64,000 nt of DNA, taken from NCBI GenBank assembly GCA_043809645.1, contig JBDROX010000044.1:767-64766 (forward strand). Reading direction: 5' to 3'. The notes beneath the pieces were generated by a model that did no database searches, was not told the DNA's origin, and saw only the letters and a list, made by a program, of their open reading frames with translations. Positions 3,847 to 30,630 of the stretch are shown here, one piece after another (position 1 is the first letter of the stretch; each line of letters starts with the position of its first letter). The stretch comes from Candidatus Magasanikiibacteriota bacterium (GTDB taxonomy: Bacteria; Patescibacteriota; Patescibacteriia; Magasanikbacterales; UBA922). Position numbers and translations under genes: made by a program.

Positions 3847-4402
3847 GCGCTTTTATTTTCTTTATAAAATCTGGCATTAACATTTCTAATTTCATGATAC
3901 TGTTCTGCAAAATTTCATCATAGATTTTTATTCTGGTTTCATAATTAGTCATTGCTCCATTATTAACTCTGTAACTTTCTCTACTTTGTATAGTTTCATT
4001 TATCTCGTTTGTAAGTTTTGTTATTTTTCTCATTTCTTCAAGTAAATCTGCTTGGTTTTTAAATAAGCTGGGACAATTCATTGTTAAAAAAGAAGAGAAG
4101 TCACCGTTTAGTTTAACTAGAGGCTTTACAATTATTTTTTTTTGTTCGAGAACATTTAGTTCTTGTAAGATTGTCTGCTTATTATCTTTAAGTTCTGAAA
4201 TATTTGTCTCTAATTCATGCGCGATTGTAGTTAAACTATTTTTTTCTTGTTTAATTGATTTATATTTGTCCCAAGCAATCGTTAGGGCAACTCCAATTAA
4301 TGCGACAATTACACCAGTAAAAAAAGAAAAATAATCAAAACTTACTGTGTTTTGCACAGGGGTATTATTTGGCTTCCATTCTGATATAGTTAAATTTTGC
4401 AT
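3836..4402 (-). CDS. Hypothetical membrane-anchored coiled-coil protein (188 aa)
   Basis: One TM helix (FFTGVIVALIGVALTIAW) followed by coiled-coil-rich sequence; no recognisable domain. Confidence 0.5.
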   Translation of the reverse strand: MQNLTISEWKPNNTPVQNTVSFDYFSFFTGVIVALIGVALTIAWDKYKSIKQEKNSLTTIAHELETNISELKDNKQTILQELNVLEQKKIIVKPLVKLNGDFSSFLTMNCPSLFKNQADLLEEMRKITKLTNEINETIQSRESYRVNNGAMTNYETRIKIYDEILQNSIMKLEMLMPDFIKKIKAHIS

Positions 4403-4426
4403 GTCTAATTGATTTTATAAAAGCGC

Positions 4427-4568
4427 ATTTCAGCTAAACGTATCCAAATATCTGAAGTTTGCTGGAGTGTAACGAAAGCAAATTTGGGTCGAAAAAGTTT
4501 TGCGTTCCTTAATTTAAAAATCTAATAAGGCAAAACTTTTGAGCCAGATATTTGGTGTTGTGTGATGT
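4427..4568. repeat. attC-like structured element E (142 bp): ATTTC-AGCTAAAC / stem1 CCAAATATCTG...CAGATATTTGG / TTTGCT...AGCAAA / TTTGGGTC / GTTGTGT-GATGT
   Basis: Outer stem 4444-4454/4545-4555 fully complementary; most divergent member. Confidence 0.55.
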
Positions 4569-4587
4569 TGCCAAAAAGCTTCGTTGT

Positions 4588-4962
4588 TTATTGATCAATA
4601 ACTTTGTCTGTTTTCAAAACCTCTCGTTTGTCTTCACCTGTCGGCACTTGCTTGATAACTAGAAACTTCACAATTTCGCTAGTATGATTGATGAAGGTGT
4701 GCGGGGTGCTTTCTGTCTCAATCAAATCACCAGCTTTGACGATCTGACTTTCGATTTTATCGCCGACCTTCCACTCAGCAGTAAGTTCGCCTTCGATAAT
4801 ATACAAACTTTCCAAAATCTTCTCGTGGTGATGCCAGGTTTGAGTTGACCCCGCCACCTGCTCGTTGTAGTGCAATTCATACTCTTGGCGAAGATAATAG
4901 CGAACGTTTGTCCCTTCGGGTTTTGAAACAGACAAAGATTCCTCACGTTTAATTATTTTCAT
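4588..4962 (-). CDS. Cupin-domain protein (124 aa)
   Basis: Cupin motifs (HHHEKILESLYIIEGEL ... GDLIETESTPHTF). Confidence 0.7.
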   Translation of the reverse strand: MKIIKREESLSVSKPEGTNVRYYLRQEYELHYNEQVAGSTQTWHHHEKILESLYIIEGELTAEWKVGDKIESQIVKAGDLIETESTPHTFINHTSEIVKFLVIKQVPTGEDKREVLKTDKVIDQ

Positions 4963-4998
4963 AGCACTAATCTTATTTTTTAGAAAAGCTTTTTGGCA

Positions 4999-5010
4999 AT
5001 TTCGTACAAC
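4999..5010. other. Isolated left-end box of the repeat family (ATTTC-GTACAAC = GTTGTAC-GAAAT on minus strand) with no partner arm: attI-like half-site at the head of the cassette array
   Basis: Only the 12-nt conserved end is present; the following sequence diverges from all elements. Confidence 0.4.
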
Positions 5011-5097
5011 TATGTATATACCAACTTCTAAATATTTTTGCTGAGTTATAGTATAATTTACTCAGATAATTCCATTCAGAAGGTGGTTATGAATGGA

Positions 5098-5125
5098 ATT
5101 ATATCATGTGTGATATTGTCGGCAA
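5098..5125 (-). promoter_or_regulatory. sigma70-like promoter on minus strand (TTGCCG-N16-TATAAT) pointing into the cassette array
   Basis: Perfect -10 hexamer and 4/6 -35 hexamer with 16-nt spacer, 136 nt upstream of the first cassette ORF. Confidence 0.45.
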
Positions 5126-5145
5126 ACTATCTTTATTATCAATTC

Positions 5146-5233
5146 TTATAAGCCTTCCCCCTAGCCTCTATATACTTCTTGGCTTCCAGTAGAGGGTTAT
5201 CTGCCTTGTAGATGCCTCGCCCAACAATAATAA
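5146..5233. repeat. Direct-repeat copy 1 of the 3' end of the pyrD-E-F fusion gene (encodes a variant C-terminus ...IIVGRGIYKADNPLLEAKKYIEARGKAYKN*)
   Basis: 62 bp identical plus about 30 bp similar to 6087-6174. Confidence 0.8.
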
Positions 5234-5280
5234 GGTATTGCAGTTATACAAGTCAGTTACTTAGTCATCAATTTAATTTT

Positions 5281-5984
5281 TTAATGAATACAATCTTTAT
5301 AAATTGAAGTGAGACCTGTAAATGAAAATAATTGATAATCAATTTCATTTAAAAATCTATGAATTTTTGTATTGCTATTTTGAAGAGATAGATCGTCGTC
5401 CTCAATGATAATTACTTTTGGTCTAAATTTTTCCCAATCATTACTCTTTAGGACATCAAAATTATTTCCTTCAACATCTATTGTTATGAAATCAATTTTT
5501 TGATTTCCTGGCATATGTTTACTTAAAATAATTTTCAACGGCAAGCATTTTATTGACCTTTCCTCAATAAAACGAATATATTTTTTTTAACATGATTTCT
5601 TTCTGTTCATGGTTAAAGGTGTTGCAACTTTTATGATTAAAGACATAATATTTTAAATTATTTTCATCCAAGGCAACACCATAATTTAAATTAATATCTC
5701 TTCTTCTGCTTCTATTAAAATATTTAATACTTTCAATATTGGGCTCAATATTTAGACCTTTCCAACCTTTCTTATAAAAAAAATTAGTATTAGAATAATG
5801 TTTGGGGTGGTATGCTCCAACATCAACATAAAAACCATCTTTTTTATTTCTAAAAAGATTTTCTATTAAAATGTCTTCACCAGATTGTGAATTTTTTTTG
5901 TAAATGTTCTAAAGAAAAAATTTTTGATATTTATAAGATTAAATAAATATTTATTTTCAATATTTATCAAAGACTCTTTTGCTC
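5281..5984 (-). pseudogene. FkbM-family methyltransferase disrupted by two 1-nt frameshifts, each in an A8/T8 homopolymer (about 5589 and about 5891)
   Basis: Three frame segments together give MKDRAKESLINIE...SQSGEDILIENLFRNKKDGFYVDVGAYHPKHYSNTNFF...KIDFITIDVEGNNFDVLK, characteristic of FkbM methyltransferases. Confidence 0.65.
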
Positions 5985-6067
5985 TATCTTTCATATTTTT
6001 TAATACTTCATTGAAAAAATAGAACGTGGCTAAATTATACTACTCTTGCTAGAGTAGTCAATACAAA

Positions 6068-8602
6068 TTATCTTCGAATTCTCTCCTTATATCCTCTCCA
6101 CCCAGCCTCTCTATACTTCTTGGCTTCCAGTAGAGGGTTATCTGCCTTGTAGATGCCTCGCCCAACAATAATAATGTCGCTGTCGTGCTCACCAATAATC
6201 TTCTCAGGAGTATTATATTGCTGACCGAGGTTATCTATGCCTGTATCCAGTTTAACACCTGGTGTCATGTTTAGAAAGCCTGGATCATCAAGCTGCTTCT
6301 TCATGGCGATGAAGCCAATTACAAAATCCTTATTCTTCCCAGCCATTTTCATTGTCTCCTCTGTATAACTTCCTGTCGCCAGGTTTCCACTTGAGCTCAT
6401 TTCAGATAGGAGGAGTAGGCCTCTGCCTTTTGGCATGCCGACTTCCCTGAGCCCGTCGATGATTCCTGGGCCTGGGACTGTGTGTGCGTTCACAATATCT
6501 GCCCAGTCAGAAATGTGGTACACACCTTTCTCATATTGCTGCTTCACAGTGTTTCCAATATCTGCAAATTTTCTGTCTTCGAAGATCATGAAGTTGTAGA
6601 TTTCTGCGAATCTCTTGAGTTCTGCTACGAGGTGTTCATCGAAGTCCTCGACAATGTCGATATGTGTTTTGAATAGACAGATTTCTGGGCCTAGCATATT
6701 GGCGAGGGTCAGGAGTTCGTACTTAGTCGTCACATCTGCTGCCACGCAGAGATTGGTTTTCTTGTCTTCCATGATGTTGAAGAGCCGTTTTGCACTCGGG
6801 TTTGTACAGAGCATTGCTCGGTCGCCGTAGGAAAGTCTTGTTTTATTAGGCTTACTTATTTTTTTAGGAGTTACCTGATTCTCTCGCAGAAAATTCTGAA
6901 CTCGGTCGTACATTTCTCTATCAATATTGTCTGCATTCAGGAGATTTGTAAGAAGTTCATCCATGGTGATTACAGCATGCGCCGTGTAACCTCGCTTTTC
7001 AATATTTTTTCTTCCACCATGTTGTCTGTCGAGGAGGACTACAATATCGTGGACACGGAGTCCTTCTGCCTCAAGTGGTTCCACTGTTTCAAAAACACTA
7101 GAGCCGCTAGTAATGAGGTCTTCGACCACAAGGCAAGTATTTCCTGTGTCAAAAGTACCCTCTATCGTTTGCTTCGTTCCATACACCTTCACTTCTTTCC
7201 TTCTCATGACCATTGGCTTGTTATGTGCCAGAGATAGTGCTGTGGCTATTGGGAGGGCTGTGTATGGGACACCACAGACACAGTCGAACTGGACATCATT
7301 TACCTTCTCCCACATCATGTCGGCGACCAGGGAAAGGATTTCTGGGTAGGAGACAATGACGCGTAGGTCAATATAGATAGGGGAGGTGATACCACTCTTC
7401 AGTGTGAACTCACCAAATTTGATAGCGTCGATCTCAAAGAGCTTTTGAATCAGAAATTCTTTTTTTGAGGCTATGAGTACTTGTTCAATAAGATCTGGCT
7501 TTAGTCCTACTTCGCTTGCCAGTCCTTCATGATATCTCATGGCAAGGTATGGATCCCACATCATACCAGTCGCGCTCATAGCTACGTCTGCACCGCGACC
7601 CAGCATTTCGTCGAAGTGTTCTGGCTTCGTGATTCCACCAACGCCAATGAGCGTGAGGTCGAGATGTTCTTCTTTGATAATCTTTCTTGCTTTTGAAATA
7701 AAGTCATAGGCGTGGTTTCTGATTGGTCCACCACAAACTCCGCTAGTCTCGCGACCTTCTCCAAGCGCCGGTTTTCCATTTTCATCAATCACTTTTCTTC
7801 CAATAGTATTGATACCACTAATTGCGCGTGCGCCACCTCTTGCTGCAGCCAAGAAGATGTCGCGCATGAATTCATTGTTTTCAAATACACCGACTTTGAT
7901 GATGAGTGGGATGTGTCCAATTTCTTTTGTAATCTTTGAGCAAATTTCTTCTACTGTATCTGGGTTTGTGTAGATACTTCCTTCTCCACTGCAGACATTT
8001 GGACAGGAGAAGTTCGCTTCTATGATTTTCGCTCCAGCATCTCTGGCAAGGGCTGCTGTCTTTACAAAGTCCTCTGTGAAGTCTTCTCCAGGAGTTGGTG
8101 TGCCGACGATAGAGACGACAAGTACTTGTCCGTCTCGAAGAGATGCGTTGGCTGCTTTGATATCTTTGATAAGAGTTTCGTTTCCAGAGCTTGGCATGCC
8201 AAAAGAATTCGTAATAGCAAAAGAATCCATTGAGTCAGTCTGGTGTGTTGTTTGTTGGAGTGGTGCATTATCGCTACCATCTAGATTTTCTGGAGCTATA
8301 TAGACAATATTCGGATGTGGGTGACCAGCATACTCTCGGTTTCGAATGGTTTTGTATGTGATGATATCGAACCCAAGGTGGGATGCGAGCGCGGTCCACT
8401 TTGACGTGAGGAGTGGGCCGGCTGGAACACCGATAGGAGATCGAACTTTGTAGCCCAGAAAATCAATGGCCGGTTTTTTTGATTTAGGTCTTTCTGGAAT
8501 GCTGCCTTCAAAAAAAGGACCATGCGCTGCGTTGTATTCGTAACTCTTGTGAATATCGTAGAGTGGGGGATTCTTTGGAAACCACTGCGGAATCTTGGTC
8601 AT
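6068..8602 (-). CDS. pyrDEF: Tri-functional fusion: class-1-type dihydroorotate dehydrogenase (PyrD) + orotate phosphoribosyltransferase (PyrE) + OMP decarboxylase (PyrF), 844 aa
   Basis: N-term DHOD motifs (GVPAGPL, NFSCPN with Cys base, GVGGI); middle OPRTase PRPP loop (LVVEDLITSGSS); C-term ODCase motifs (DRKFADIGNTV, IIIVGRGIY). Confidence 0.85.
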   Translation of the reverse strand: MTKIPQWFPKNPPLYDIHKSYEYNAAHGPFFEGSIPERPKSKKPAIDFLGYKVRSPIGVPAGPLLTSKWTALASHLGFDIITYKTIRNREYAGHPHPNIVYIAPENLDGSDNAPLQQTTHQTDSMDSFAITNSFGMPSSGNETLIKDIKAANASLRDGQVLVVSIVGTPTPGEDFTEDFVKTAALARDAGAKIIEANFSCPNVCSGEGSIYTNPDTVEEICSKITKEIGHIPLIIKVGVFENNEFMRDIFLAAARGGARAISGINTIGRKVIDENGKPALGEGRETSGVCGGPIRNHAYDFISKARKIIKEEHLDLTLIGVGGITKPEHFDEMLGRGADVAMSATGMMWDPYLAMRYHEGLASEVGLKPDLIEQVLIASKKEFLIQKLFEIDAIKFGEFTLKSGITSPIYIDLRVIVSYPEILSLVADMMWEKVNDVQFDCVCGVPYTALPIATALSLAHNKPMVMRRKEVKVYGTKQTIEGTFDTGNTCLVVEDLITSGSSVFETVEPLEAEGLRVHDIVVLLDRQHGGRKNIEKRGYTAHAVITMDELLTNLLNADNIDREMYDRVQNFLRENQVTPKKISKPNKTRLSYGDRAMLCTNPSAKRLFNIMEDKKTNLCVAADVTTKYELLTLANMLGPEICLFKTHIDIVEDFDEHLVAELKRFAEIYNFMIFEDRKFADIGNTVKQQYEKGVYHISDWADIVNAHTVPGPGIIDGLREVGMPKGRGLLLLSEMSSSGNLATGSYTEETMKMAGKNKDFVIGFIAMKKQLDDPGFLNMTPGVKLDTGIDNLGQQYNTPEKIIGEHDSDIIIVGRGIYKADNPLLEAKKYREAGWRGYKERIRR
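6087..6174. repeat. Direct-repeat copy 2 (native 3' end of the pyrD-E-F fusion gene)
   Basis: See 5146-5233. Confidence 0.8.
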
Positions 8603-8612
8603 ACCTATGGTG

Positions 8613-10865
8613 TTAGTACTGAATATTCTCCTCCAGGAGCCACATGATCATTGCTTTTTGTGCATGGAGTCTGTTTTCTGCTTGGTTCAGGATGACAGCC
8701 TTTGGGTGGTTGATAGTATCACGCGAAATTTCGTATCCCACGTGAAGTGGCATACAGTGCATGATGTGCGCGTCTGGTGCGTACTCACTCATCAATTCTG
8801 CGTTAATCTGATATGGAAGAAATTGTTCCTTCCTTCTCTCATACTCACTTTGGAATTCTGGCTTCACTTTTCCGCTTTCTCCTCCAGAGGCGGACTCGTC
8901 TGCTGCGAGGAAAAATTCCATGTTCATCCATGTGTCTGTATGGACGAAGTCAGTTTTGGCAAGCGCTTCTTCCAGGTTCTGTGTTCTGGTGACAAGTCCT
9001 GTTGCCGCTGCCATGATATTTAATTCTGGATCAACACTTTTCTCATCTACTTCTGCTGCGGCTATAGCTACTTCGATGCCAAGCTTCGCGCACATGAGCA
9101 TGAGTGTGTTCGAGACATTGTTCTCAATGCCGAGCCAGGTGATTTTTTTAATATTTTCAACGCCACCTTTTATTTCCGTCATTGTCAAAAGGTCACTCAA
9201 GGCTTGCGCAGGGTGGTATTTCTCACTACACGCATCGATGACTGGAATTCTATTGAATGACGCAGCAAGCTCAACATCACTTGCTTGCTTTGCACGGAAC
9301 ATGAGGACATGTCCGAATCGCATGACTGCCTGGATTTCATCTGCGAAGTCTGTGAGAGAGAATTGGGCGGTTCTACTATCGAGGAAGATAGAGTGGCCAC
9401 CGAGTTCTGTCATACTAGCCTCGAAAGAGAGACGTGTTCGCGTTGATGTTTTCTGAAACAACATGATGAGTGTCTTGTTCTGGAGATAGTTGGTCAATCT
9501 TCCAGAATTTCTCTTTGCTTTTATTCTCTGTGCAATGTCTAGAATTTCCAAGATGTTTTTTCTTGACTGTTCTTTGAGTGAAATGATGTGGCGCATAGAT
9601 TTTTTCTGAATAGTTGATTTGATTATTGTACTGATATTTTTTTGAGGTTCATTTTGGGTAATTTCAGAAGCTGAGGTACAGTCATAGATTTTGTTTTTTA
9701 AAACTGTATACACTGGCCAGCCAGTGAGATTCCATCCGTTGAAAGGGGACCATCTGCATTTTGTAAATAATTTGTTGTTTTCAACAGCCTTTTTTTCTCT
9801 CAGATCAACTAGGACATAGTCGTTAGTCTTTTCTAGTCCAAAGATGTTTTTTGGGTTAGTACTCGTGAGCTCCACAATTTTTTCTAGAGAGATTTTTCGA
9901 TTATGATGGGCGTCTAAGAGAAGAGGAAGGAGTGTTTCTATTCCTGGGACACCAGATGGTGCCTCTCCATAGGGAAGAGATTTTTCGTTCAACGTATGTG
10001 GGGCATGGTCTGTACCAATAGTGTCGATTGTTCCATCTTGGATCCCCTCCCATAGTGCGTCCATATCTTTTGTTGATCGGAGTGGTGGGTTCATCTGTGC
10101 TTTGCAGCCAAGGGTGTTGTAGTGTGCTTCATTCAGAAAGAGATGGTGTGGTGTGACTTCCGCATACACACTCAGCCCTTCTCTCTTTGCTTCTCGAATC
10201 ATATCCAGTTCTGTCTTTGTACTCACGTGGCAGACATAGAATCGTGTTCCAAATGTTCTGGCTGCGTTGATAACTCTCTCGAGCGCGATAGCGGTGGCCT
10301 TTGGATTCCTCTTTTTGGAATGTACGGCCGGGTCTATTTCTCCTTCATATGTTGCCGAGCATTCTTTCAGATATGCCTCATCCTCTGCGTGCACAGCCAC
10401 AAGCATGTTTTCTTTTGCCGCAATTTCAGCCACACGGTTGAAATCTTTTTCTTCATCTATCAAAAGATCTCCTGTGCTTGAGCCCATGAATACTTTGATG
10501 GCCACTGATACATCCTTTGTGCTTCCTAGGTCATCCAGCCGATCTTTATCAGCCCCAACATAGAGTAAGTATCTCAGTGCGATGCTAGCTTCTGCTAGTC
10601 GCTTTTCAATAACCTCTTTTTTTTGTATCAGCCGTTCTCTCGATGTACATGATGGGGTATTGTTTGGCATGTCGAGGACTGTGGTCACTCCACCAGCAAT
10701 TGCTGCTTTTGAGGCTGTCTTCCAATCTTCCTTGTGCTCTGCACCAGGTGTACGGAAGTGTACATGTGGATCAATCAGGGCTGGAAGTGCGGTGAGCGAC
10801 TCAGCATTTGTTTCGGGTGGAAGATCAATGTCTATGGATTGATTGTTACATGTCTTTATGATCAT
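8613..10865 (-). CDS. pyrC: Bifunctional fusion: dihydroorotase (PyrC) + ornithine/aspartate carbamoyltransferase-fold domain (750 aa), CAD-like order
   Basis: N-term DHOase motifs (DPHVHFR, HAED, GTDHAPH); C-term transcarbamylase motifs (STRTR, HPAQ, HCMPL); HCxP and TDTWMNM resemble OTCase more than ATCase. Confidence 0.8.
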   Translation of the reverse strand: MIIKTCNNQSIDIDLPPETNAESLTALPALIDPHVHFRTPGAEHKEDWKTASKAAIAGGVTTVLDMPNNTPSCTSRERLIQKKEVIEKRLAEASIALRYLLYVGADKDRLDDLGSTKDVSVAIKVFMGSSTGDLLIDEEKDFNRVAEIAAKENMLVAVHAEDEAYLKECSATYEGEIDPAVHSKKRNPKATAIALERVINAARTFGTRFYVCHVSTKTELDMIREAKREGLSVYAEVTPHHLFLNEAHYNTLGCKAQMNPPLRSTKDMDALWEGIQDGTIDTIGTDHAPHTLNEKSLPYGEAPSGVPGIETLLPLLLDAHHNRKISLEKIVELTSTNPKNIFGLEKTNDYVLVDLREKKAVENNKLFTKCRWSPFNGWNLTGWPVYTVLKNKIYDCTSASEITQNEPQKNISTIIKSTIQKKSMRHIISLKEQSRKNILEILDIAQRIKAKRNSGRLTNYLQNKTLIMLFQKTSTRTRLSFEASMTELGGHSIFLDSRTAQFSLTDFADEIQAVMRFGHVLMFRAKQASDVELAASFNRIPVIDACSEKYHPAQALSDLLTMTEIKGGVENIKKITWLGIENNVSNTLMLMCAKLGIEVAIAAAEVDEKSVDPELNIMAAATGLVTRTQNLEEALAKTDFVHTDTWMNMEFFLAADESASGGESGKVKPEFQSEYERRKEQFLPYQINAELMSEYAPDAHIMHCMPLHVGYEISRDTINHPKAVILNQAENRLHAQKAMIMWLLEENIQY

Positions 10866-11375
10866 CTAATTGCTCTTATATTCGTAAATATTTTTTTGGC
10901 TAAATATCTTTTCGCAATATGCACACTGGAGTGTGAGCCCTGATCCATTCTCATGAGAAATGTGGAATCTTGAGTTCATGCGTTCATTATTTGTAATACA
11001 GGTTGGATTTGGACAGACAATGAGCCTTTCGATAGTTTCTGGAATCGATATTTTGAACTTTTCTGCAACCTTGAAGTTTCGAATAATATTGATTGTTGCA
11101 TTTGGTGCAAAGATAGCGACCTTATTTGCTTCATCTTTTGTCAGTTCTCTGTGCTCCACTTTGATAAGATCCTTGTGTCCTTGCTCTTTGCTTTCTAGGT
11201 TAAGGCCAACAGTCACAATTGTTTTATCTTCTGCAAGGTTTAGGATTCGAATAATTTTTATCGCCTGACCGGCGTCGATATGGTCGATCACAGTGCCATC
11301 TTCAATCGTGAAGACTTTGAATGTTCTAAGATCTTTTGGAGGTTGGTTGTTTTGAACAGTTTCCATATGTTGCAA
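10866..11375 (-). CDS. pyrI: Aspartate carbamoyltransferase regulatory subunit PyrI
   Basis: IEDGTVIDHI motif and C-terminal Zn ribbon (CPNPTC...CAYC). Confidence 0.85.
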   Translation of the reverse strand: MQHMETVQNNQPPKDLRTFKVFTIEDGTVIDHIDAGQAIKIIRILNLAEDKTIVTVGLNLESKEQGHKDLIKVEHRELTKDEANKVAIFAPNATINIIRNFKVAEKFKISIPETIERLIVCPNPTCITNNERMNSRFHISHENGSGLTLQCAYCEKIFSQKNIYEYKSN

Positions 11376-11380
11376 AGTTA

Positions 11381-12394
11381 TTATTGAAGTTTTCCAAGGA
11401 CAAGACCAAGGAGTGCCTGTCGGACATAGAGTCCGTTCTCAGCTTGTTGGAAGTAATATGCATGCGGAGTTGCATCAATATCTACTTCAATCTCATTCAC
11501 ACGTGGAAGCGGGTGAAGTATTCTCATATTTGGTTTGGCACTGTTCATCATGTCTTTGGTAAGGACAAAGACATTCTTCACGCGTTCATATTCCATTTTG
11601 TCTGGGAATCGTTCACCCTGAATTCGTGTTATGTAGAGAATATCTACTTTTGGCATGACTTCTTCTATGCTCGAGTGTTCGGTAAAGCCAATATTTTTCT
11701 TCTGGAGGTATCTGCAGATATAGTTTGGCATTTTGAGTGAGTCTGGTGCAATGAAGTGGAGCTCTGCGCCGAAGTGAGTGAGTGCCTGGGTCAGGGAGTG
11801 AACTGTTCTTCCATATTTGAGATCTCCGACTAGTGCGATTGAAAGCCCTTCGAGAGATCTTTGTGATTCTTTGATGGTGAAGAGATCAAGTAGTGTTTGA
11901 GTTGGATGTTGATTCGACCCGTCTCCGCCGTTCAAGATTGGTTTATCAGTAGCTTCTGCCGCACGACGGACTGAACCTTCCATTGGGTGGCGCATGACAA
12001 TGACATCTGCATATTGGCCAATTATTTTCATTGAGTCGTATATTGTCTCTTTCTTTTTTACAGAGGTGACATTTGCATCTGCAAATCCCATGACCTCTCC
12101 ACCGAGTCTTTTCATAGCCGTTTCGAATGAAAGTCTTGTTCTGGTTGATGGTTCAAAGAAACAGCTTGCCATGACGTATGTTTGGAGAAGTGTTGGTTGT
12201 GGCTTTTGTTTTAGCTGCTTTGCATGCTCGAGTACTTTCTCAATGTCTTCTTTGGAAAGATCTGTGATGGACAGTATATCTCTCCCTTCGAACGTTTTTT
12301 GTCTGGTTGTGAATTGTCCAGAGAGTTTTTCCAATATTTCTGCCTTCGATAGTCCTTCGAGGGCTGCCAATTCGCTTTGAGAAAGTGGGGTCAT
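11381..12394 (-). CDS. pyrB: Aspartate carbamoyltransferase catalytic subunit PyrB
   Basis: STRTR, HPTQ, RIQGERF, HPLPR motifs. Confidence 0.9.
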
Positions 12395-12483
12395 ATGTGT
12401 ATGTATAGTGAGTTAAGCCCTGTATTTGACTTCGAAGCCTTAGCCAGTACAGGATTCGTCATTTTCAGCTATTGCTGAAAAAG

Positions 12484-12514
12484 TGAAAAAAAAGACCACT
12501 CGTATCAGAGTGGC
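12484..12514 (-). terminator. Rho-independent terminator (minus strand): GGCCACTC-tgatacg-AGTGGTC + T8; followed by a second 8-bp hairpin TTTTCAGC-aata-GCTGAAAA (12459-12480)
   Basis: Stem-loop plus T-run read from sequence. Confidence 0.7.
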
Positions 12515-12626
12515 CATTGGCTTTGATTTATTTCCTCCTCGTCGATTACGTGGACGAGATATATTTTCATACTGAGAGGAGTGTATCATCTTTTGTTCTT
12601 CAGTACAAATGGATTGGTGTGGAAAA

Positions 12627-13667
12627 CTAAACTTCCTTCCCTTGCTCAACTATTTTATCTCGTAATTCTCCAAATACCTTGTTTGCGAGCGCACTTTCTT
12701 CATGAAAGAATGCATAATTGTCAGCTTTGTTGAAATAGGTGGTAAGGAGGCTGTCATGTGTTGGGTCTGTTTCGTATCCTTCTGGAATATCTGGATCTGG
12801 AATATCTGCAAGTTTTTCTTTAAGGTCTCTAGACGATTGGGCGACATGTATACCATTGCTGATTTCAAAATTATAACCAGGTAGTGTATCAGAATCAATA
12901 CGGGTTGTGCTCAATTTATGTATCAGTTTTGCAAGGGTCTTTTTTGCTATAAATATGCTATCTACTGGTGTCTTGCCTGCCTTTGGATAAATTACAATAG
13001 ATGGTTTTCCCTGTGCAGCTTTGTCATCAGGAGAAAAACATTTAATTTTAAAGGCATTAATTTCCCAGTTAAAATCTGAGTCTTGTGCAATCAAATCTAT
13101 GATAAGTTTGGCAATTTCTGGAAGCTGATCAAGTTTTGGTTGGATATGAATTTTAAATTCTCGAGCCAAATCTTTCCTTCTGTGATCTATGGCTTCTTTG
13201 TAGTATGTCTTTGCTTTTCGTTCGTAGTCACAATTCGGTTTTATATTCCTCTTTTCTTGATCTAGCCATTCTTTGGGAATTTCAATGTCTTCCTGAAGTG
13301 GTATCTCATGGATCCATTTATAAATACGTCCAAGAGCATTTTCCTGAACCTGTTCCTTTGTAGTTCCAGAGTATTTGCGTTCATGAGGATCTTTTGCTGA
13401 AAACATGTTTCTGTAAATAATTTGGTTTTCTAGAAGATCATTCACATCAGTCGGAGCCTTGCAATCTGCCAATCTAAAATATTGATAAAAACCAGAACCA
13501 TTTTTTTTTGGATGAACAGTGAGATCATCAAAATAAACTTCAGGAGAGAGTGTGTCCATAGCCATTTTTTTGTAGACTTTTGCTTGTTCAAGAGGGTGGA
13601 GTTCTGAAAAGTTTTCACTTTTTTCCCTTGCTTCATGAAGATGCGCACTCCGAGATCGTTCATTCAT
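12627..13667 (-). CDS. Hypothetical protein (346 aa), no recognisable domain
   Basis: Long ORF with coding-like composition between gatB and pyrB. Confidence 0.5.
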   Translation of the reverse strand: MNERSRSAHLHEAREKSENFSELHPLEQAKVYKKMAMDTLSPEVYFDDLTVHPKKNGSGFYQYFRLADCKAPTDVNDLLENQIIYRNMFSAKDPHERKYSGTTKEQVQENALGRIYKWIHEIPLQEDIEIPKEWLDQEKRNIKPNCDYERKAKTYYKEAIDHRRKDLAREFKIHIQPKLDQLPEIAKLIIDLIAQDSDFNWEINAFKIKCFSPDDKAAQGKPSIVIYPKAGKTPVDSIFIAKKTLAKLIHKLSTTRIDSDTLPGYNFEISNGIHVAQSSRDLKEKLADIPDPDIPEGYETDPTHDSLLTTYFNKADNYAFFHEESALANKVFGELRDKIVEQGKEV

Positions 13668-13671
13668 AAAA

Positions 13672-15216
13672 TTATAATGTTTTTTTAAGGAGTTCTTCAG
13701 CGATCTGTGGGTCAGCGTTGCCTTCTGTTGTTTTCATAACCATACCAATGAGGAATTTGAGCACTGTCTCTTTTCCTGACTTATACTCCTCAACCTGTTT
13801 TGGATGGCTTCGTACGACTTCATCAACTATGCTCTGAAGTTTCCCTTCATTACTCATTTGGCCATATCCTTTTTCCTCCATGATATGTGTAGGATCTTTG
13901 TCAGTTCCAGCATCCAGCATCTCACCAAGAATTTTTTGAGCATTTGTTGAATTCACTTTCCCGGCATAGATGAGAGCGATGAGCTCTGCAAAGTTTTCTG
14001 GTGAAATCTTGAGAACTTTGATATCTATACTTCGCTCCTTCAGTAGCCCCATCAGCTTGCTAGTCATCCAGCCACCAGCCAGACGAGCAATTTTTTCTTT
14101 TTTTCCCTCTCGGATTTCATCAGTTTCTCCTTTTACTTCATGGAGTGTATAGAGCCAGTCAATGAGTTCACTCATTGTTCTCTCAGAAAATGCCGCCCAG
14201 TCATTACTATCCGTGAGAATCTTGGCGTCTGCATAGGAGAAACCATATTCTTCTCTGAAACGGAGTCGTTTTTTCTGTGGAAGTTCTGGAAGTAAAACTG
14301 CCCCAGCAATCTTTTCTGGATGAAATGGGGGAATGTCTGGCTCTGGGAAATAGCGATAGTCTTCTGCATCTTCTTTTATTCTTTGAAGGACGCTTTCTCC
14401 TTTGTCTTCATTCCAACCACGTGTCTGCTGTTCCCATGATTCTCCTTTTTCTAGGAGTGCTTCTTGGCGTTGCAGCTCAAAATCAATAGCACGTTCTATT
14501 GCCTTAAAAGAATTAATATTTTTGAGTTCCACCTTATTGTTCAGAACATATTTTCCAAGAGGTTTAACGACTCCGTCTACAATTTCAAATTTGCCAGTCT
14601 CCTGAAGTGAAATATTTGCTTCACATCTCATGTGTCCTTTCTCCATATCTGCATCACTAACTTTGAGTGTTCGAAAGATACTTCTAAGCTCTTGGCAGTA
14701 GGTCTTTGCCTCTATTGGTGTTTTGAAGTCAGGGTCTGTGACGATTTCAACTAGCGGGATTCCTGCTCTATTAAAATCAACAAGAGTATCTCCTTTTTTG
14801 TTATGAGTCAGCTTGGCAGTGTCTTCTTCGAGGTGAACTCTGGTGATACCAATCTTGGCTTCATCCCGAACATTGGTCTCGAGAGGGAAAGAGAGTGTTA
14901 TCTCCCCATGCTTGGCAACAGGCTCATCATATTGGGAGATTTGATAGCCCTTTGGAAGATCTGGATAGAAGTAGTGTTTTCTATCAAACTTAGAAATATC
15001 TCGAATAGAACACCCAAGAGCCTTTCCAATCAGAACAGTCCATTCTATGGCTTTTTGATTTGGGACTGGGAGTGTCCCTGGTTGTGCTGTGCAGATTTCA
15101 CAGATATTACTGTTTGGTTCTACAGCATCAGGGCTGTTTGTACAGGAGCAGAACATCTTGCTCTTTGTTTTGAGTTCGACATGTACTTCCATGCCAATGA
15201 TCGGGGTGTATTTCAT
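13672..15216 (-). CDS. gatB: Asp/Glu-tRNA amidotransferase subunit B
   Basis: N-term IGMEVHVELKTKSKMFCSC and overall GatB architecture. Confidence 0.9.
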   Translation of the reverse strand: MKYTPIIGMEVHVELKTKSKMFCSCTNSPDAVEPNSNICEICTAQPGTLPVPNQKAIEWTVLIGKALGCSIRDISKFDRKHYFYPDLPKGYQISQYDEPVAKHGEITLSFPLETNVRDEAKIGITRVHLEEDTAKLTHNKKGDTLVDFNRAGIPLVEIVTDPDFKTPIEAKTYCQELRSIFRTLKVSDADMEKGHMRCEANISLQETGKFEIVDGVVKPLGKYVLNNKVELKNINSFKAIERAIDFELQRQEALLEKGESWEQQTRGWNEDKGESVLQRIKEDAEDYRYFPEPDIPPFHPEKIAGAVLLPELPQKKRLRFREEYGFSYADAKILTDSNDWAAFSERTMSELIDWLYTLHEVKGETDEIREGKKEKIARLAGGWMTSKLMGLLKERSIDIKVLKISPENFAELIALIYAGKVNSTNAQKILGEMLDAGTDKDPTHIMEEKGYGQMSNEGKLQSIVDEVVRSHPKQVEEYKSGKETVLKFLIGMVMKTTEGNADPQIAEELLKKTL

Positions 15217-17251: not shown

Positions 17252-18472
17252 TTAAGACCTATTTGGAATGACAAAGAACCTTTCTTGGTCAAAAGTATGG
17301 TTACTATCTAAGACTTCTTCAGTTGGATCGGAATCTGCCTTTCTCGATACGTTGTCAAGGTTAAAAAGATTAAAACCATCAGGATCATATTTTTTTCTTT
17401 GTCTATCTAGATCCATAATACTAGCAGGGCAGCCCCTCATTGTGGTTGTGTCGTGTCCGTGCACATAGTTTCTCACAACATTTGGTAGGGGGTAATCTTT
17501 TTCTTCTTTTAGTCTTTCTCTCGCCCATACTAATGTATTTATAAGATGTAGATTGTTCTCATCAGGAGTTTTATCTTCGTATATACTTTTTAAAGTATCA
17601 TGGTGCCATTCGTTTACTCTGTCAACAAAAGCCGCCATTGTTTTTGGGTTTGTAATATCCCCTTGAAAAGAAATTGCTTGTTTGAGCTCATCAATATGAC
17701 CCTGAGAAAGTGGGGCATGTGTAAAAAGGCTCTTTGTTTCTTCGTCGTAATGAAATAATTTTTGTCTTATATAGAAACCTTTCATTTGTATATTTGTAGT
17801 TTTATGTTCAGTAGCCAACGATCTACCGCTGGATACCTTTTGCCCGTCTCCAATTCCTTTGTATCTACTCAGTGGTTTTTTTTGATGCTTTGCAATAGTC
17901 AAAACTGGTTGCATATCATGGTTTCCTGCCAAAGTTACGATATTGCCACCGTCTGCCTTTATTTTTTTGAGGATTTTCATTGTAAGTAGATCTGAAAGAC
18001 CTCTGTCTGAAATAAGGTCGCCCAAGAAAACCATTTCTCTGTCGCCACCAATCCATTCTATTGAATCTAAAAGTTCGAGAGCTTCTTTTTGCTTCTCTTT
18101 GAATCCAATTAATCTTTCTTCAGTCTCAAAAGGTGTGGACTGTGTTTTGAAAGTTATTGGGTCTGCGAGTTGTGCCATTTCAGTGTATATTTTTTTAAAT
18201 TGTCTCGCTTTTTCTTCTGGCATTGTGATCATTTCACTTAATACAGCATTTTCTAACACTTTGAGCGCACTACCATGAGCATCTCCTATTGCAACCAATT
18301 TAGCATTTTTTAGAATTTCTTCAGGGCTCTGGTCATCTTCTGTTTTTTCAGAAAATTCTAAAAATGTGACTCTTCCGGGTTCACCAATATTTAACTTTTT
18401 TTTTGTCTTGAATACTTCTTTAGTTTTTTCTATTTCACTTTTTTCTCTACCCTCTTTTTTTTTTATTTGCAT
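17252..18472 (-). CDS. PPP-family metallophosphoesterase (Ser/Thr phosphatase / ApaH-like), 406 aa
   Basis: GDAHG, GDLISDRG, GNHD, VHGHD motifs in canonical order. Confidence 0.75.
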   Translation of the reverse strand: MQIKKKEGREKSEIEKTKEVFKTKKKLNIGEPGRVTFLEFSEKTEDDQSPEEILKNAKLVAIGDAHGSALKVLENAVLSEMITMPEEKARQFKKIYTEMAQLADPITFKTQSTPFETEERLIGFKEKQKEALELLDSIEWIGGDREMVFLGDLISDRGLSDLLTMKILKKIKADGGNIVTLAGNHDMQPVLTIAKHQKKPLSRYKGIGDGQKVSSGRSLATEHKTTNIQMKGFYIRQKLFHYDEETKSLFTHAPLSQGHIDELKQAISFQGDITNPKTMAAFVDRVNEWHHDTLKSIYEDKTPDENNLHLINTLVWARERLKEEKDYPLPNVVRNYVHGHDTTTMRGCPASIMDLDRQRKKYDPDGFNLFNLDNVSRKADSDPTEEVLDSNHTFDQERFFVIPNRS

Positions 18473-28548: not shown

Positions 28549-29982
<1,434 letters not shown>

Positions 29983-30630
29983 CTACTGGCGCAGGTGATC
30001 AATGATTGTCTTCCATTCGTAGTCGAGTGTGTCAAAAATTTCTGCATCTGGCTTGAATGAAATTGTAGTTCCAGTAAACTTTGTTTTTCCAACTGCTCTT
30101 ACATTCTTTACGGCTTTTCCACGTTTGTATTCCTGAATCCAAATCTTTCCGTCTCTGTGAACTTCTGCTTTTACATCTACAGAAAGTGCATTTACAACAG
30201 AAACACCCACGCCGTGGAGACCGCCAGATACTTTGTACACAGTGTCACCGAATTTTCCACCGGCATGCAGCTTTGTCATGACCAGCTGGAGCGCACTGAC
30301 TTTCATTTTAGGATGAATACCAACCGGGATGCCACGACCGTTGTCAGTGACTGAAACCCAGTTTCCTGGAAGAAGCTTGATGGTGATATCTGTACAGTAC
30401 CCTGCCATGGCTTCATCGAATGCATTGTCTACCACTTCCCAAATCATGTGGTGGAGTCCGCGTTCGCCAGTCGAACCGATGTACATTCCAGGGCGCTTCC
30501 TTACTGCCTCGAGTCCTTCGAGTACGGTAATGGATTCTGCATCATATTTGGCATCCTTTTTCTTTGCAGGTGTTTTTTCTACCACTCCTTTACTGCTCTT
30601 TATTTCCTTTTTTTCAATCTTTTTTGGCAT
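29983..30630 (-). CDS. gyrB: DNA gyrase subunit B, N-terminal ATPase part, ending at in-frame TAG 29983-29985
   Basis: GHKL ATPase motifs (VVDNAFDEAMAG, DNGRGIPV, GLHGVGVSVVNALS). Confidence 0.85.
   Translation of the reverse strand: MPKKIEKKEIKSSKGVVEKTPAKKKDAKYDAESITVLEGLEAVRKRPGMYIGSTGERGLHHMIWEVVDNAFDEAMAGYCTDITIKLLPGNWVSVTDNGRGIPVGIHPKMKVSALQLVMTKLHAGGKFGDTVYKVSGGLHGVGVSVVNALSVDVKAEVHRDGKIWIQEYKRGKAVKNVRAVGKTKFTGTTISFKPDAEIFDTLDYEWKTIIDHLRQ

Follow-up and report, generated by a model that had tools for sequence, protein, structure and literature searches.

A single minus-strand gene in the 64-kb stretch of Magasanikbacteria DNA that we analysed (the window) encodes an 844-residue protein in which dihydroorotate dehydrogenase (DHODH), orotate phosphoribosyltransferase (OPRT) and OMP decarboxylase (OMPDC) follow one another in pathway order. 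We read this protein, with a probability of roughly 70%, as a true trifunctional enzyme that carries out steps 4, 5 and 6 of de novo UMP synthesis and arose in a Magasanikbacteria lineage from three adjacent operon genes. That it is a real trifunctional enzyme, with catalytic activities predicted from its sequence, is in itself highly probable. It is otherwise an ordinary, if very rare, fusion of operon genes for known enzymes; the domain architecture itself is new.

The ORF opens with ATG, closes with TAA and has no internal stop codon in the ORF listing of the window (Table 1). The initial annotation had proposed one polypeptide carrying the three enzymes in this order, which the domain searches bear out; it had also allowed that one of the regions might be an incomplete catalytic domain, and all three proved to be full length, with their catalytic motifs. 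With Pfam, DHO_dh matches residues 48–362 (profile positions 6–288 of 291, 72 bits), Pribosyltran residues 420–532 and OMPdecase residues 616–830 (profile 1–221 of 221, 207 bits). Among NCBIfam models, the OPRT model PRK13809 scores 229.5 bits against a cut-off of 208 (profile 10–207 of 210) and the pyrF model TIGR01740 scores 203 bits against 92 (profile 1–216 of 216). With three strong, full-length domain matches lying collinearly in the order of the pathway, this ORF cannot be a chance one. The protein is identical to MFH1287005.1 at NCBI (our P0001), from a Candidatus Magasanikbacteria bacterium MAG, whose record is titled "MAG: orotate phosphoribosyltransferase" and was deposited on a 64,990-bp contig.

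Table 1. Features of the pyr operon and of the fusion gene, in window coordinates
Feature	Position	Strand	Basis and remarks
Terminator-like hairpin followed by T run	12494..12515	minus	Consensus scan only; closes the preceding gene; upstream boundary of the pyr operon
pyrB, ATCase catalytic chain	11381..12394	minus	TIGR00670 381.8 bits, above cut-off; first gene of the operon
pyrI, ATCase regulatory chain	10866..11375	minus	TIGR00240 178.6 bits, above cut-off
Dihydroorotase (aa 18-398) :: OTCase-like carbamoyltransferase (aa 421-748)	8613..10865	minus	Pfam, NCBIfam; upstream gene
pyrD::pyrE::pyrF fusion gene	6068..8602	minus	844 codons plus TAA stop (6068..6070); ORF listing, domain searches
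Family-specific N-terminal extension, aa 1-42	8477..8602	minus	W7, Y15-D16, Y21, N24, G28-P29-F30-F31 and R38 conserved
DHODH domain, aa 1-364	7511..8602	minus	FMN TIM barrel; chlamydial/amoebozoan pyrD family
Linker 1 (DHODH/OPRT), aa 365-378	7469..7510	minus	pLDDT <50 at 365-373; start-codon scan
OPRT domain, aa 379-576	6875..7468	minus	PRK13809 229.5 bits, above cut-off; motif positions
Linker 2 (UMPS-type, OPRT/OMPDC), aa 577-590	6833..6874	minus	pLDDT <50 at 580-586; start-codon scan
OMPDC domain, aa 591-844	6071..6832	minus	OMPdecase 207 bits; TIGR01740 203 bits
Promoter-like site	6034..6061	minus	Consensus scan only, 11/12 matches; just past the stop codon of the fusion gene

As for the C-terminal 466 residues, they have the OPRT-OMPDC order of human-type UMP synthase (UMPS) within one ORF, with every catalytic motif aligned. 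The OPRT domain contains Lys402, a flexible catalytic loop with its Lys (about residues 466–477, RRKEVKVYGTK) and a PRPP-binding motif (492–502, VVEDLITSGSS), and it matches human OPRT (2wns) with 207 bits over residues 6–198 of 205. The OMPDC domain has Asp623 and, aligned to human UMPS, Lys645, Asp676-x-Lys678-x-x-Asp681, and Gln794/795 and Arg815 of the phosphate grip; it scores 310 and 306 bits against solved OMPDC domains of UMPS, the latter being the human one. With 53–57% identity to plant and green-algal UMPS, this half of the protein is indeed eukaryote-like, as had been suggested for its decarboxylase. In contrast to human-type UMPS, however, it has a complete DHODH in front of it, a bacterial host, and an operon shared with pyrB, pyrI and pyrC.

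The fusion looks real, because its junctions are devoid of start codons and because the same junctions recur independently in other metagenomic proteins. No ATG, GTG or TTG occurs in codons 356–392 across the DHODH/OPRT junction or in codons 577–596 across the OPRT/OMPDC junction, and the OPRT and OMPDC domains therefore could not be translated separately. The exact fusion is known from one MAG and one contig, and an alternative is that pyrD, pyrE and pyrF are in fact neighbouring genes whose separating stop codons were erased by one or two base errors in this MAG. A single sequence on a single contig would fit this, as would the arrangement in relatives, where the genes are adjacent with gaps of 7–16 bp or overlaps, and the in-frame TAG in gyrB on the same contig. 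Nevertheless, such an artefact is very improbable given that neither OPRT nor OMPDC retains a start codon of its own, that linker 2 aligns with the linker of the fused CPR UMPS proteins P0007 and P0010, that the DHODH-OPRT linker (about 14–20 residues, 42–60 nt) exceeds the 15-nt spacer of the Magasanikbacteria locus L005, and that independent fusions at the same junctions are known. We also considered the DHODH/OPRT linker (20 residues) as a remnant of LDcluster4, whose gene lies between pyrD and UMPS in locus L001, and rejected this candidate, its local alignment score being no better than that of shuffled sequences (225 and 435 of 500 shuffles matched it).

The placement of PyrD before PyrE-PyrF had been called rare, and the searches agree: only one other tri-fusion of the same order, P0241, is found among 1.84 billion cluster representatives, and a literature search turned up no report of a DHODH-OPRT-OMPDC fusion. 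P0241 (799 aa) is 48% identical to the window protein (45, 50 and 51% for the successive domains), is devoid of the N-terminal extension and is encoded outside any pyr operon in an unrelated gene context; it is of independent origin. The DHODH family of the window protein also occurs in shorter or rearranged combinations with pyrimidine enzymes, namely DHODH-OPRT (P0012 and P0017, about 552 aa), DHODH-OPRT-PyrC (P0013, 901 aa), DHODH-OMPDC (P0242, 617 aa), PyrC-DHODH (P0304, 708 aa), OMPDC-DHODH in Flabellula (613 aa) and, with all three domains in permuted order, OPRT-OMPDC-DHODH in the amoebozoan Clydonella (1037 aa). The DHODH-OPRT junction itself recurs in the independent proteins P0012, P0013, P0015, P0017, P0020, P0243 and P0251. 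Other CPR genomes encode PyrK-OPRT-OMPDC fusions (P0003, P0004 and P0005), which resemble the window protein in that a component of step 4 has been added to the N terminus of UMPS.

The fusion gene is the last of an operon that reads pyrB, pyrI, pyrC::OTC-like, pyrD::pyrE::pyrF, the OTC-like gene being separate in the related loci L004, L005, L012, L007 and L062. A promoter-like site lies immediately downstream, which suggests that a new transcription unit may begin there. Between positions 4000 and 14000, no pyr leader or riboswitch was matched in Rfam at E values up to 0.1. In the ORF listing of the 64-kb window no carA or carB homologue was noticed, no ORF coming near CarB in size, and tblastn found no ArgG-MGS, PRK06886 amidohydrolase or LDcluster4 in it. 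The flanks of the window, with ThyA, DHFR, Tmk and GatB, are syntenic with L001 and L004. An in-frame TAG lies inside gyrB, which shows that this contig is not free of point errors or pseudogenes.

In 80 related genomes, most of them from Chlamydiota and some from Magasanikbacteria, the pyr genes keep this order but are separate; the loci were gathered by means of alignment A1 of the DHODH family. The full series PyrB>PyrI>PyrC>DHODH>OPRT>OMPDC is present in 34 of the 80 loci, most others being partial; OPRT lies within 6 kb of DHODH in 74, almost always directly after it, and OMPDC in 70. A pyrimidine operon with an amoeba-like pyrD and eukaryote-like pyrE and pyrF has been described in Rhabdochlamydia helvetica, Waddlia chondrophila and Criblamydia sequanensis (PMC6490308). 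The gene families and the order pyrB-pyrI-pyrC-pyrD-pyrE-pyrF are those of the window, and the DHODH domain is 52–58% identical to the chlamydial genes, but the genes are separate there, whereas here pyrD, pyrE and pyrF form one gene, pyrC is fused to an OTC-like domain and the host belongs to the CPR. The nearest relatives of the three domains are the separate pyrD, pyrE and pyrF genes of a Magasanikbacteria MAG (L005; 62, 63 and 69% identity, respectively). In a neighbour-joining tree of the OMPDC domain, the window protein is nested in a clade of fused CPR UMPS genes with 74% bootstrap support. We propose that the ancestral state was a row of separate, often overlapping genes, pyrB-pyrI-pyrC-pyrD-pyrE-pyrF, which most relatives would have kept. 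In the CPR, pyrE and pyrF would already have been fused into a UMPS-type gene before DHODH joined, and other proteins would repeatedly have been added to its N terminus: PyrK or a SLOG/LDcluster4 protein elsewhere, DHODH in the window.

The DHODH domain had been described as class 1-type, which is right for its catalytic Cys only. Its TIM-barrel fold and its FMN- and pyrimidine-binding Lys and Asn residues place it in the DHODH/DPD FMN-barrel superfamily, the key residues being Lys84, Asn132, Asn197, Cys200 (codon 8003..8005), Asn202, Lys236 and Asn265. Cys200, within the NFSCPN motif (residues 197–202), occupies the position of the catalytic base and is invariant in A1. However, the domain falls below the cut-off of every curated NCBIfam model of classes 1A, 1B and 2, with 37.8 bits against 301 for class 1A (PRK02506), 79.5 against 269 and 62.8 against 270 for class 1B (PRK07259 and TIGR01037), and 37.5 against 200 for class 2 (TIGR01036). 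It thus has the Cys base of class 1A and lies outside that class by sequence; it has neither the adjacent PyrK of class 1B nor a passing score on its models; and it has a Cys where class 2 has a Ser. Nor is it a PreA/DPD protein, as judged by its score (69.8 bits against 335 for NF006183), by the lack of any Fe-S domain in Pfam searches of the 844-aa ORF and by its context of de novo synthesis. Among solved structures, class 1B gives the best sequence match (51–58 bits); the family profile reaches 58 bits against class 1B, 49 against DPD and 27 against class 1A (DHODA structures 1jub, 27 bits, and 1dor, 26.3 bits). In structure, the domain is equally distant from classes 1A, 1B and 2 and from DPD.

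Within the superfamily, the domain falls instead on a branch of its own, the chlamydial/amoebozoan pyrD family, whose characteristics it shares: a length of about 365 residues, an N-terminal motif, more than 50% identity (52–62% to 61 members) and a position between pyrC and pyrE. The motif, W-F-P..P-I-Y-D..Y..N..G-P-F-F, lies at residues 7–31 within a 42-residue extension, whose conserved residues correspond to invariant or near-invariant columns of A1. This extension is missing from canonical class 1 enzymes in PDB alignments and has no detectable similarity to the N-terminal domain of class 2. The family is common to Chlamydiota, some CPR bacteria and Amoebozoa, of which dictyostelid members were seen, and is carried by at least 580 species-level genomes, its members often being annotated as tRNA-dihydrouridine synthase, PreA or hypothetical protein. 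The dictyostelid homologues, named dihydroorotate oxidase, begin directly at the N-terminal motif with no presequence, and amoebozoan members are found fused to OMPDC or UMPS. The pyr4 gene of Dictyostelium discoideum, reportedly isolated through its rescue of a yeast ura1 mutant (Jacquet et al. 1985, Biochimie), may itself belong to the family, among whose members its dictyostelid orthologues were found. A literature search found no biochemical work on the family.

In the reaction sequence that we propose, the N-terminal FMN barrel would use Cys200 as its base to oxidise dihydroorotate to orotate, the OPRT domain would join orotate to PRPP to give OMP, and the OMPDC domain would decarboxylate OMP to UMP. 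A different chemistry for the first domain has a precedent in fungal "class 1A-like" proteins, DHODH-like proteins that were shown to be dihydrouracil oxidases and serve as a cautionary case (PMC10395836). That the present domain is likewise a dihydrouracil or dihydropyrimidine oxidase is hardly credible, since in the majority of the 80 genomes its gene is flanked by pyrC and pyrE, numerous independent architectures join it to OPRT, OMPDC or PyrC, and OPRT needs orotate, not uracil.

The initial annotation had asked which electron acceptor the DHODH domain uses. Soluble class 1A enzymes, such as Lactococcus lactis PyrDa, those of trypanosomatids and yeast URA1, are linked to fumarate or O2, whereas class 1B DHODH (PyrD-PyrK, NAD-linked) and DPD exchange electrons with Fe-S partners. 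We think that the DHODH domain would work in the class 1A manner. It shares with class 1A the FMN TIM barrel, the Cys base in an N-x-S-C-P-N loop, the four substrate Asn residues, the two Lys residues and the lack of PyrK; it differs in its N-terminal extension and in the 27 bits that its family profile scores against DHODA. With class 1B it shares the Cys base, and solved class 1B structures give its best sequence match, but it has no PyrK in the window or near the family in 80 genomes. The absence of a PyrK partner from the window, already pointed out in the initial annotation, was upheld when the PyrK portion of P0003, used as a tblastn query, found no homologue in the 64 kb, and none of the 80 loci has pyrK within 6 kb of a DHODH of this family. 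Most likely, DHODH would follow a ping-pong mechanism in which a small soluble acceptor reoxidises it, with no PyrK-type electron-transfer subunit. Independence from PyrK is probable; that the acceptor in a fermentative, quinone-free CPR bacterium would be fumarate, or O2 when present, is a choice towards which we lean slightly, and fumarate specifically would be a tentative one. In tblastn searches of the 64-kb window, the fumarate-producing enzymes ArgH and adenylosuccinate lyase were not found. The conserved N-terminal extension could bind a different acceptor.

Two other readings concern the electron acceptor. The DHODH domain might need a redox partner encoded elsewhere (a PyrK-like flavoprotein, ferredoxin or flavodoxin), the fusion holding the catalytic part only. 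The family profile does score best against class 1B PyrD and DPD, both Fe-S-partnered, other CPR genomes do fuse PyrK to UMPS, and our view is limited to 64 kb of the genome. This nevertheless seems unlikely in the light of the pyrK-free surroundings of the family in 80 genomes. Moreover, a Parcubacteria genome (L003) has, at the syntenic position, a canonical PyrD of 302 aa together with a PyrK-UMPS fusion instead of the family DHODH, PyrK there accompanying the canonical enzyme. The members from Amoebozoa are joined to OMPDC or UMPS of the cytosolic type and have no obvious partner. Alternatively, the domain could be quinone-linked as in class 2, its extension taking the role of the quinone-binding helices, which is very unlikely: the base is Cys rather than Ser, the class 2 model is far from its cut-off, P0241 does without the extension altogether and, to our knowledge, CPR bacteria have neither quinone synthesis nor respiratory chains. 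PyrK-independent reoxidation by a soluble acceptor is our preferred reading.

As for the fused protein as a whole, the full-length AlphaFold (AF2) model has a mean pLDDT of 89.5 and each domain is confidently predicted, but the pTM is 0.53 and confidence is low in the linkers (residues 365–373 and 580–586) and in loops beside the catalytic motifs (202–208, 472–475 and 790–794). The three domains appear, in this model, to be independently folded units on flexible linkers, and nothing in the analysis supports the channelling of orotate to UMP that the fusion had been taken to imply. The gain from fusion would more likely be a fixed 1:1:1 stoichiometry and co-assembly than a sealed channel. OPRT, OMPDC and class 1A DHODH act as homodimers, and if the family DHODH also dimerises, the fusion raises the question of how three dimer-forming enzymes in one chain assemble. 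A natural single polypeptide leading from dihydroorotate to UMP would be a compact test case for channelling versus fixed stoichiometry only.

The fusion also sharpens the question of what reoxidises DHODH in a fermentative CPR bacterium that has no quinones and, here, no visible PyrK, and assays that address it could conveniently use the soluble fused protein. The DHODH domain could represent a fourth class of the enzyme, common to Chlamydiota, some CPR bacteria and Amoebozoa, with a Cys base, an N-terminal module of its own and an acceptor or mode of reoxidation unlike those of classes 1A, 1B and 2. We regard this as a doubtful possibility; if it were true, the many independent fusions with OPRT, OMPDC and PyrC would imply that the family works inside a soluble multi-enzyme pyrimidine assembly. 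These independent fusions are Rosetta-stone evidence that a large and poorly annotated family is the DHODH of the pathway.

The initial annotation had proposed that DHODH, OPRT and OMPDC are joined in one polypeptide, and our analysis upholds this main interpretation. The domains are encoded by one ORF with the coordinates originally assigned, the sole correction being that it lies on the minus strand. A Pfam search of the translation finds the three domains in order, and NCBIfam recognizes both OPRT and OMPDC as complete, with 229.5 bits for PRK13809 (cut-off 208, positions 10-207 of 210) and 203 bits for TIGR01740 (cut-off 92). Against solved structures, the OMPDC domain matches those of UMPS (OPRT-OMPDC fusions) with 306-310 bits and the OPRT domain matches human OPRT with 207 bits, both over their entire length. 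The catalytic motifs are complete, with K84, N132, N197, C200 (in NFSCPN), N202, K236 and N265 in DHODH; K402, loop 466-477 and the PRPP motif (492-502) in OPRT; and D623, K645, D676-K678-D681, Q794/795 and R815 in OMPDC. An identical protein, NCBI MFH1287005.1, is encoded on a 64,990-bp contig of a Candidatus Magasanikbacteria MAG.

Features of the pyr operon and of other genes in the window (nucleotide positions in the window, or residues of the fusion protein)
Feature	Position	Strand	Details
pyrD::pyrE::pyrF ORF	6068..8602	minus	844 codons, ATG start, TAA stop
DHO_dh domain	aa 48-362		Pfam, 72 bits, profile positions 6-288 of 291
Pribosyltran domain	aa 420-532		Pfam
OMPdecase domain	aa 616-830		Pfam, 207 bits, entire profile
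Dihydroorotase with second, OTCase-like carbamoyltransferase domain	8613..10865	minus	750 aa (dihydroorotase aa 18-398, second domain aa 421-748); Pfam and NCBIfam
pyrI	10866..11375	minus	NCBIfam
pyrB	11381..12394	minus	TIGR00670, 382 bits
Terminator-like hairpin	12494..12515		ahead of pyrB
ORF, 346 aa	12627..13667	minus	
ORF, 249 aa	15350..16099	minus	
WipA-like phosphatase domain protein	17252..18472	minus	406 aa; PF21663, 70.7 bits
gyrB, two ORFs	29983..30630 and 28549..29796	minus	
gyrB in-frame TAG	29983..29985	minus	CTGCGCCAG TAG GCTTACCTT

A sequencing artefact might have joined separate pyr genes, since the exact fusion is known from a single contig and the same contig has an in-frame TAG that splits gyrB. 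This codon must be a point error in the MAG, a pseudogene mutation or a readthrough site, and it is a caveat on the base accuracy of the contig. Three observations argue against an artefact. First, neither junction retains a start codon (ATG, GTG and TTG are all absent from codons 356-392 and 577-596), and separate translation of the OPRT and OMPDC domains is therefore impossible. Second, the OPRT-OMPDC linker aligns with those of the fused CPR UMPS P0007 and P0010, while the DHODH-OPRT linker, with ~14-20 residues (42-60 nt), is far longer than the 15-nt spacer between the separate genes of L005, a related Magasanikbacteria locus. Third, equivalent junctions recur independently, in DHODH-OPRT proteins (P0012, P0015, P0017, P0020, P0243 and P0251), in P0013 and in a second DHODH-OPRT-OMPDC protein (P0241). 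In P0013, from another Magasanikbacteria genome (901 aa, L004 8001..10706), DHODH-OPRT is followed by PyrC, a homodimeric-type dihydroorotase (C-terminal TIGR00856 at 332 bits), which brings together steps 4, 5 and 3; OMPDC is not visible in the L004 locus. The pyr locus fuses repeatedly in this lineage.

That a PyrD in front of UMPS is rare, as first suggested, was borne out by an exhaustive phmmer search over 1.84 billion cluster representatives, in which P0241 (799 aa, 48% identical) was the sole other protein to match across DHODH, OPRT and OMPDC in that order. P0241 represents an independent fusion because its per-domain identity is low (45, 50 and 51%), it is placed elsewhere in the tree and it lacks the N-terminal extension; its neighbors, an H+-PPase and a tRNA-synthetase-like gene, are unrelated to those in the window. 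Literature searches found no description of a DHODH-OPRT-OMPDC fusion.

The DHODH domain carries a class-1 Cys loop yet scores below the cut-off of every curated NCBIfam DHODH model, the best being class 1B (PRK07259, 79.5 bits vs. 269), with lower scores for PreA (69.8 vs. 335), class 1A (PRK02506, 37.8 vs. 301) and class 2 (TIGR01036, 37.5 vs. 200). In an alignment of 62 sequences that are 52-60% identical to it, the residues that typically contact FMN and orotate show no variation, and a 42-residue N-terminal extension is conserved (W7, Y15, D16, Y21, N24, G28-P29-F30-F31 and R38). The profile of this family scores 58 bits with class 1B, 49 with DPD, 27 with class 1A and 22 with class 2. 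The AlphaFold model of the domain is confident (pLDDT 91.4, pTM 0.91), with pLDDT below 50 only at the C-terminal linker (366-375) and in the loop after Cys200 (202-207). Together, these findings place the domain on a separate branch of the DHODH/DPD superfamily: by sequence it belongs to none of the three textbook classes, and its structure is equally distant from all of them. The family, which is poorly annotated, is widespread in Chlamydiota and also occurs in some CPR bacteria and in Amoebozoa, including dictyostelid proteins (Cavenderia, Heterostelium) named dihydroorotate oxidase. It also includes the DHODH of two proteins from amoebozoan transcriptomes, P0009 of Clydonella sp. ATCC 50884 (OPRT-OMPDC-DHODH in permuted order, 1037 aa) and P0014 of Flabellula baltica (OMPDC-DHODH, 613 aa). 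These fusions and the dictyostelid members suggest that genes have passed between amoebae and the chlamydiae or other bacteria associated with them. As judged from sequence and gene context, DHODH function is the only sensible reading of the family because its position is fixed between pyrC and pyrE and it is repeatedly fused to PyrC, OPRT and OMPDC. For the same reasons, the N-terminal domain is very unlikely to be a dihydrouracil oxidase, the activity of certain fungal DHODH-like proteins (PMC10395836).

Which electron acceptor would this DHODH use? In line with the initial annotation, a search of the 64-kb window for PyrK, the electron-transfer subunit of class 1B DHODH, came back empty, and pyrK was found within 6 kb of the family in none of the best 80 of at least 580 genomes. 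At a syntenic parcubacterial locus (L003), a canonical 302-aa PyrD and a PyrK-UMPS fusion stand where Magasanikbacteria have this DHODH family, so the two look like alternatives. In amoebozoan members the DHODH is joined to OMPDC or UMPS, and the dictyostelid proteins start right at the family motif, without a presequence. CPR bacteria are not known to have quinones or respiratory chains. Taken together, these points make a class-1A-like soluble mechanism most likely, in which fumarate or O2 would reoxidize the reduced FMN at the same site. In L001, another CPR locus, the pyrD start is overlapped by the gene for argininosuccinate lyase, an enzyme that releases fumarate; this link weighs little because no such gene was found in the window and the PyrK-type locus L003 likewise has arginine-pathway neighbors. 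A protein partner encoded elsewhere is a real alternative, since class 1B and DPD, the nearest sequence relatives of the family, use Fe-S partners.

We scanned one genome per species with the family alignment, which matched at least 580 genomes, and compared ORFs called at the best 80 loci with the domains of the window protein. These 80 are mostly Chlamydiota, the others being MAGs labeled Verrucomicrobiae, Gammaproteobacteria or Pseudobdellovibrionaceae, a few unclassified bacterial MAGs and Magasanikbacteria/Patescibacteria. The whole series PyrB>PyrI>PyrC>DHODH>OPRT>OMPDC is present, in this order, in 34 of these 80, and part of it in most of the remainder; OPRT lies within 6 kb of DHODH in 74, nearly always immediately after it, OMPDC is present in 70, and DHODH is fused to another domain in none. 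Such an operon is known in Rhabdochlamydia, Waddlia and Criblamydia, where pyrE and pyrF are nearest to eukaryotes and pyrD to amoebae (PMC6490308). For all three domains of the window protein, the highest identity is to separate genes of L005 (pyrD 62%, pyrE 63% and pyrF 69%). In a neighbor-joining tree of OMPDC domains, the window protein falls within a clade of already-fused CPR OPRT-OMPDC genes (74% bootstrap), whose N-terminal partners are none (P0007, P0010), PyrK (P0003), SLOG/LDcluster4 (P0006) or, in the window, DHODH. The most economical history is that a CPR UMPS-type gene came first and that the upstream pyrD then joined its front. The PyrK and SLOG/LDcluster4 versions (P0003, at L003 6300..8555, P0004, P0005 and P0006; 751-761 aa and 663 aa) were seen in other CPR bacteria, PyrK-UMPS being an unusual architecture in its own right. 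In the Magasanikbacteria locus L012 (~7100..7720), an unrelated phosphoribosyltransferase type (VVEDLTSTGGS motif) lies between pyrD and pyrF in place of the eukaryote-like OPRT, in what appears to be non-orthologous displacement. Upstream of pyrD in L001 (5727..8004) and L003 (2635..5253), pyrB and pyrC are replaced by an amidohydrolase of 323 aa (369 bits to NCBIfam PRK06886, "hypothetical protein"). It occurs together with argininosuccinate lyase in L001 and, in L003, with a protein that combines argininosuccinate synthase with an MGS domain; these loci may represent an unconventional route to dihydroorotate.

In the window, the fusion is the final gene of a tight minus-strand operon, 10 nt from the preceding dihydroorotase gene, with a promoter-like site just past its stop codon and, by an Rfam scan of 4000..14000, no known RNA element. 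The second carbamoyltransferase domain of the dihydroorotase gene, present in addition to the true pyrB, is OTCase-like yet under all cut-offs (PRK00779, 264.6 bits vs. 306), with HCMP corresponding to the OTC-type HCLP, but with DTWMNME in place of the DxxxSMG of OTCases; an equivalent gene is found unfused, between pyrC and pyrD, in L004, L005, L012, L007 and L062. Since we noticed no carA/carB homolog in the window, where no ORF is near CarB size, this domain may provide carbamoyl phosphate from citrulline or a related ureido compound. Farther upstream are the genes for GatB, thymidylate kinase, DHFR, ThyA and a dCMP deaminase. Between DHFR and ThyA of this CPR genome is the protein with a WipA-like domain, a family named after a Legionella effector. 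The 346-aa and 249-aa ORFs hold a conserved position in this nucleotide-metabolism cluster and have no match in Pfam or NCBIfam, the 249-aa ORF standing where L001 and L004 have a UPF0259 membrane protein. The remaining genes (L1, NusG, GyrB, RF1, RNase J, tRNA synthetase, Ldh/Mdh and copper ATPase) are a typical small-genome housekeeping set.

The full-length AlphaFold model shows three confident domains (mean pLDDT 89.5) yet a low overall pTM (0.53), with low confidence at linkers 365-373 and 580-586 and otherwise only in three short loops beside catalytic motifs (202-208, 472-475 and 790-794). The model is consistent with three domains that fold independently and are flexibly tethered, rather than with a fixed tunnel, and it speaks neither for nor against the channeling that had been proposed. 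Co-expression at fixed stoichiometry and co-assembly are the safer inference. OPRT, OMPDC and class 1A DHODHs act as homodimers; if this DHODH also dimerizes, up to three dimer interfaces have to be accommodated in one chain, and higher-order assemblies may follow. The gene is thus a new domain architecture of known enzymes, which arose by fusion of adjacent operon genes. The tri-fusion is rare and mechanistically unsurprising; the part that deserves follow-up is the DHODH family itself.
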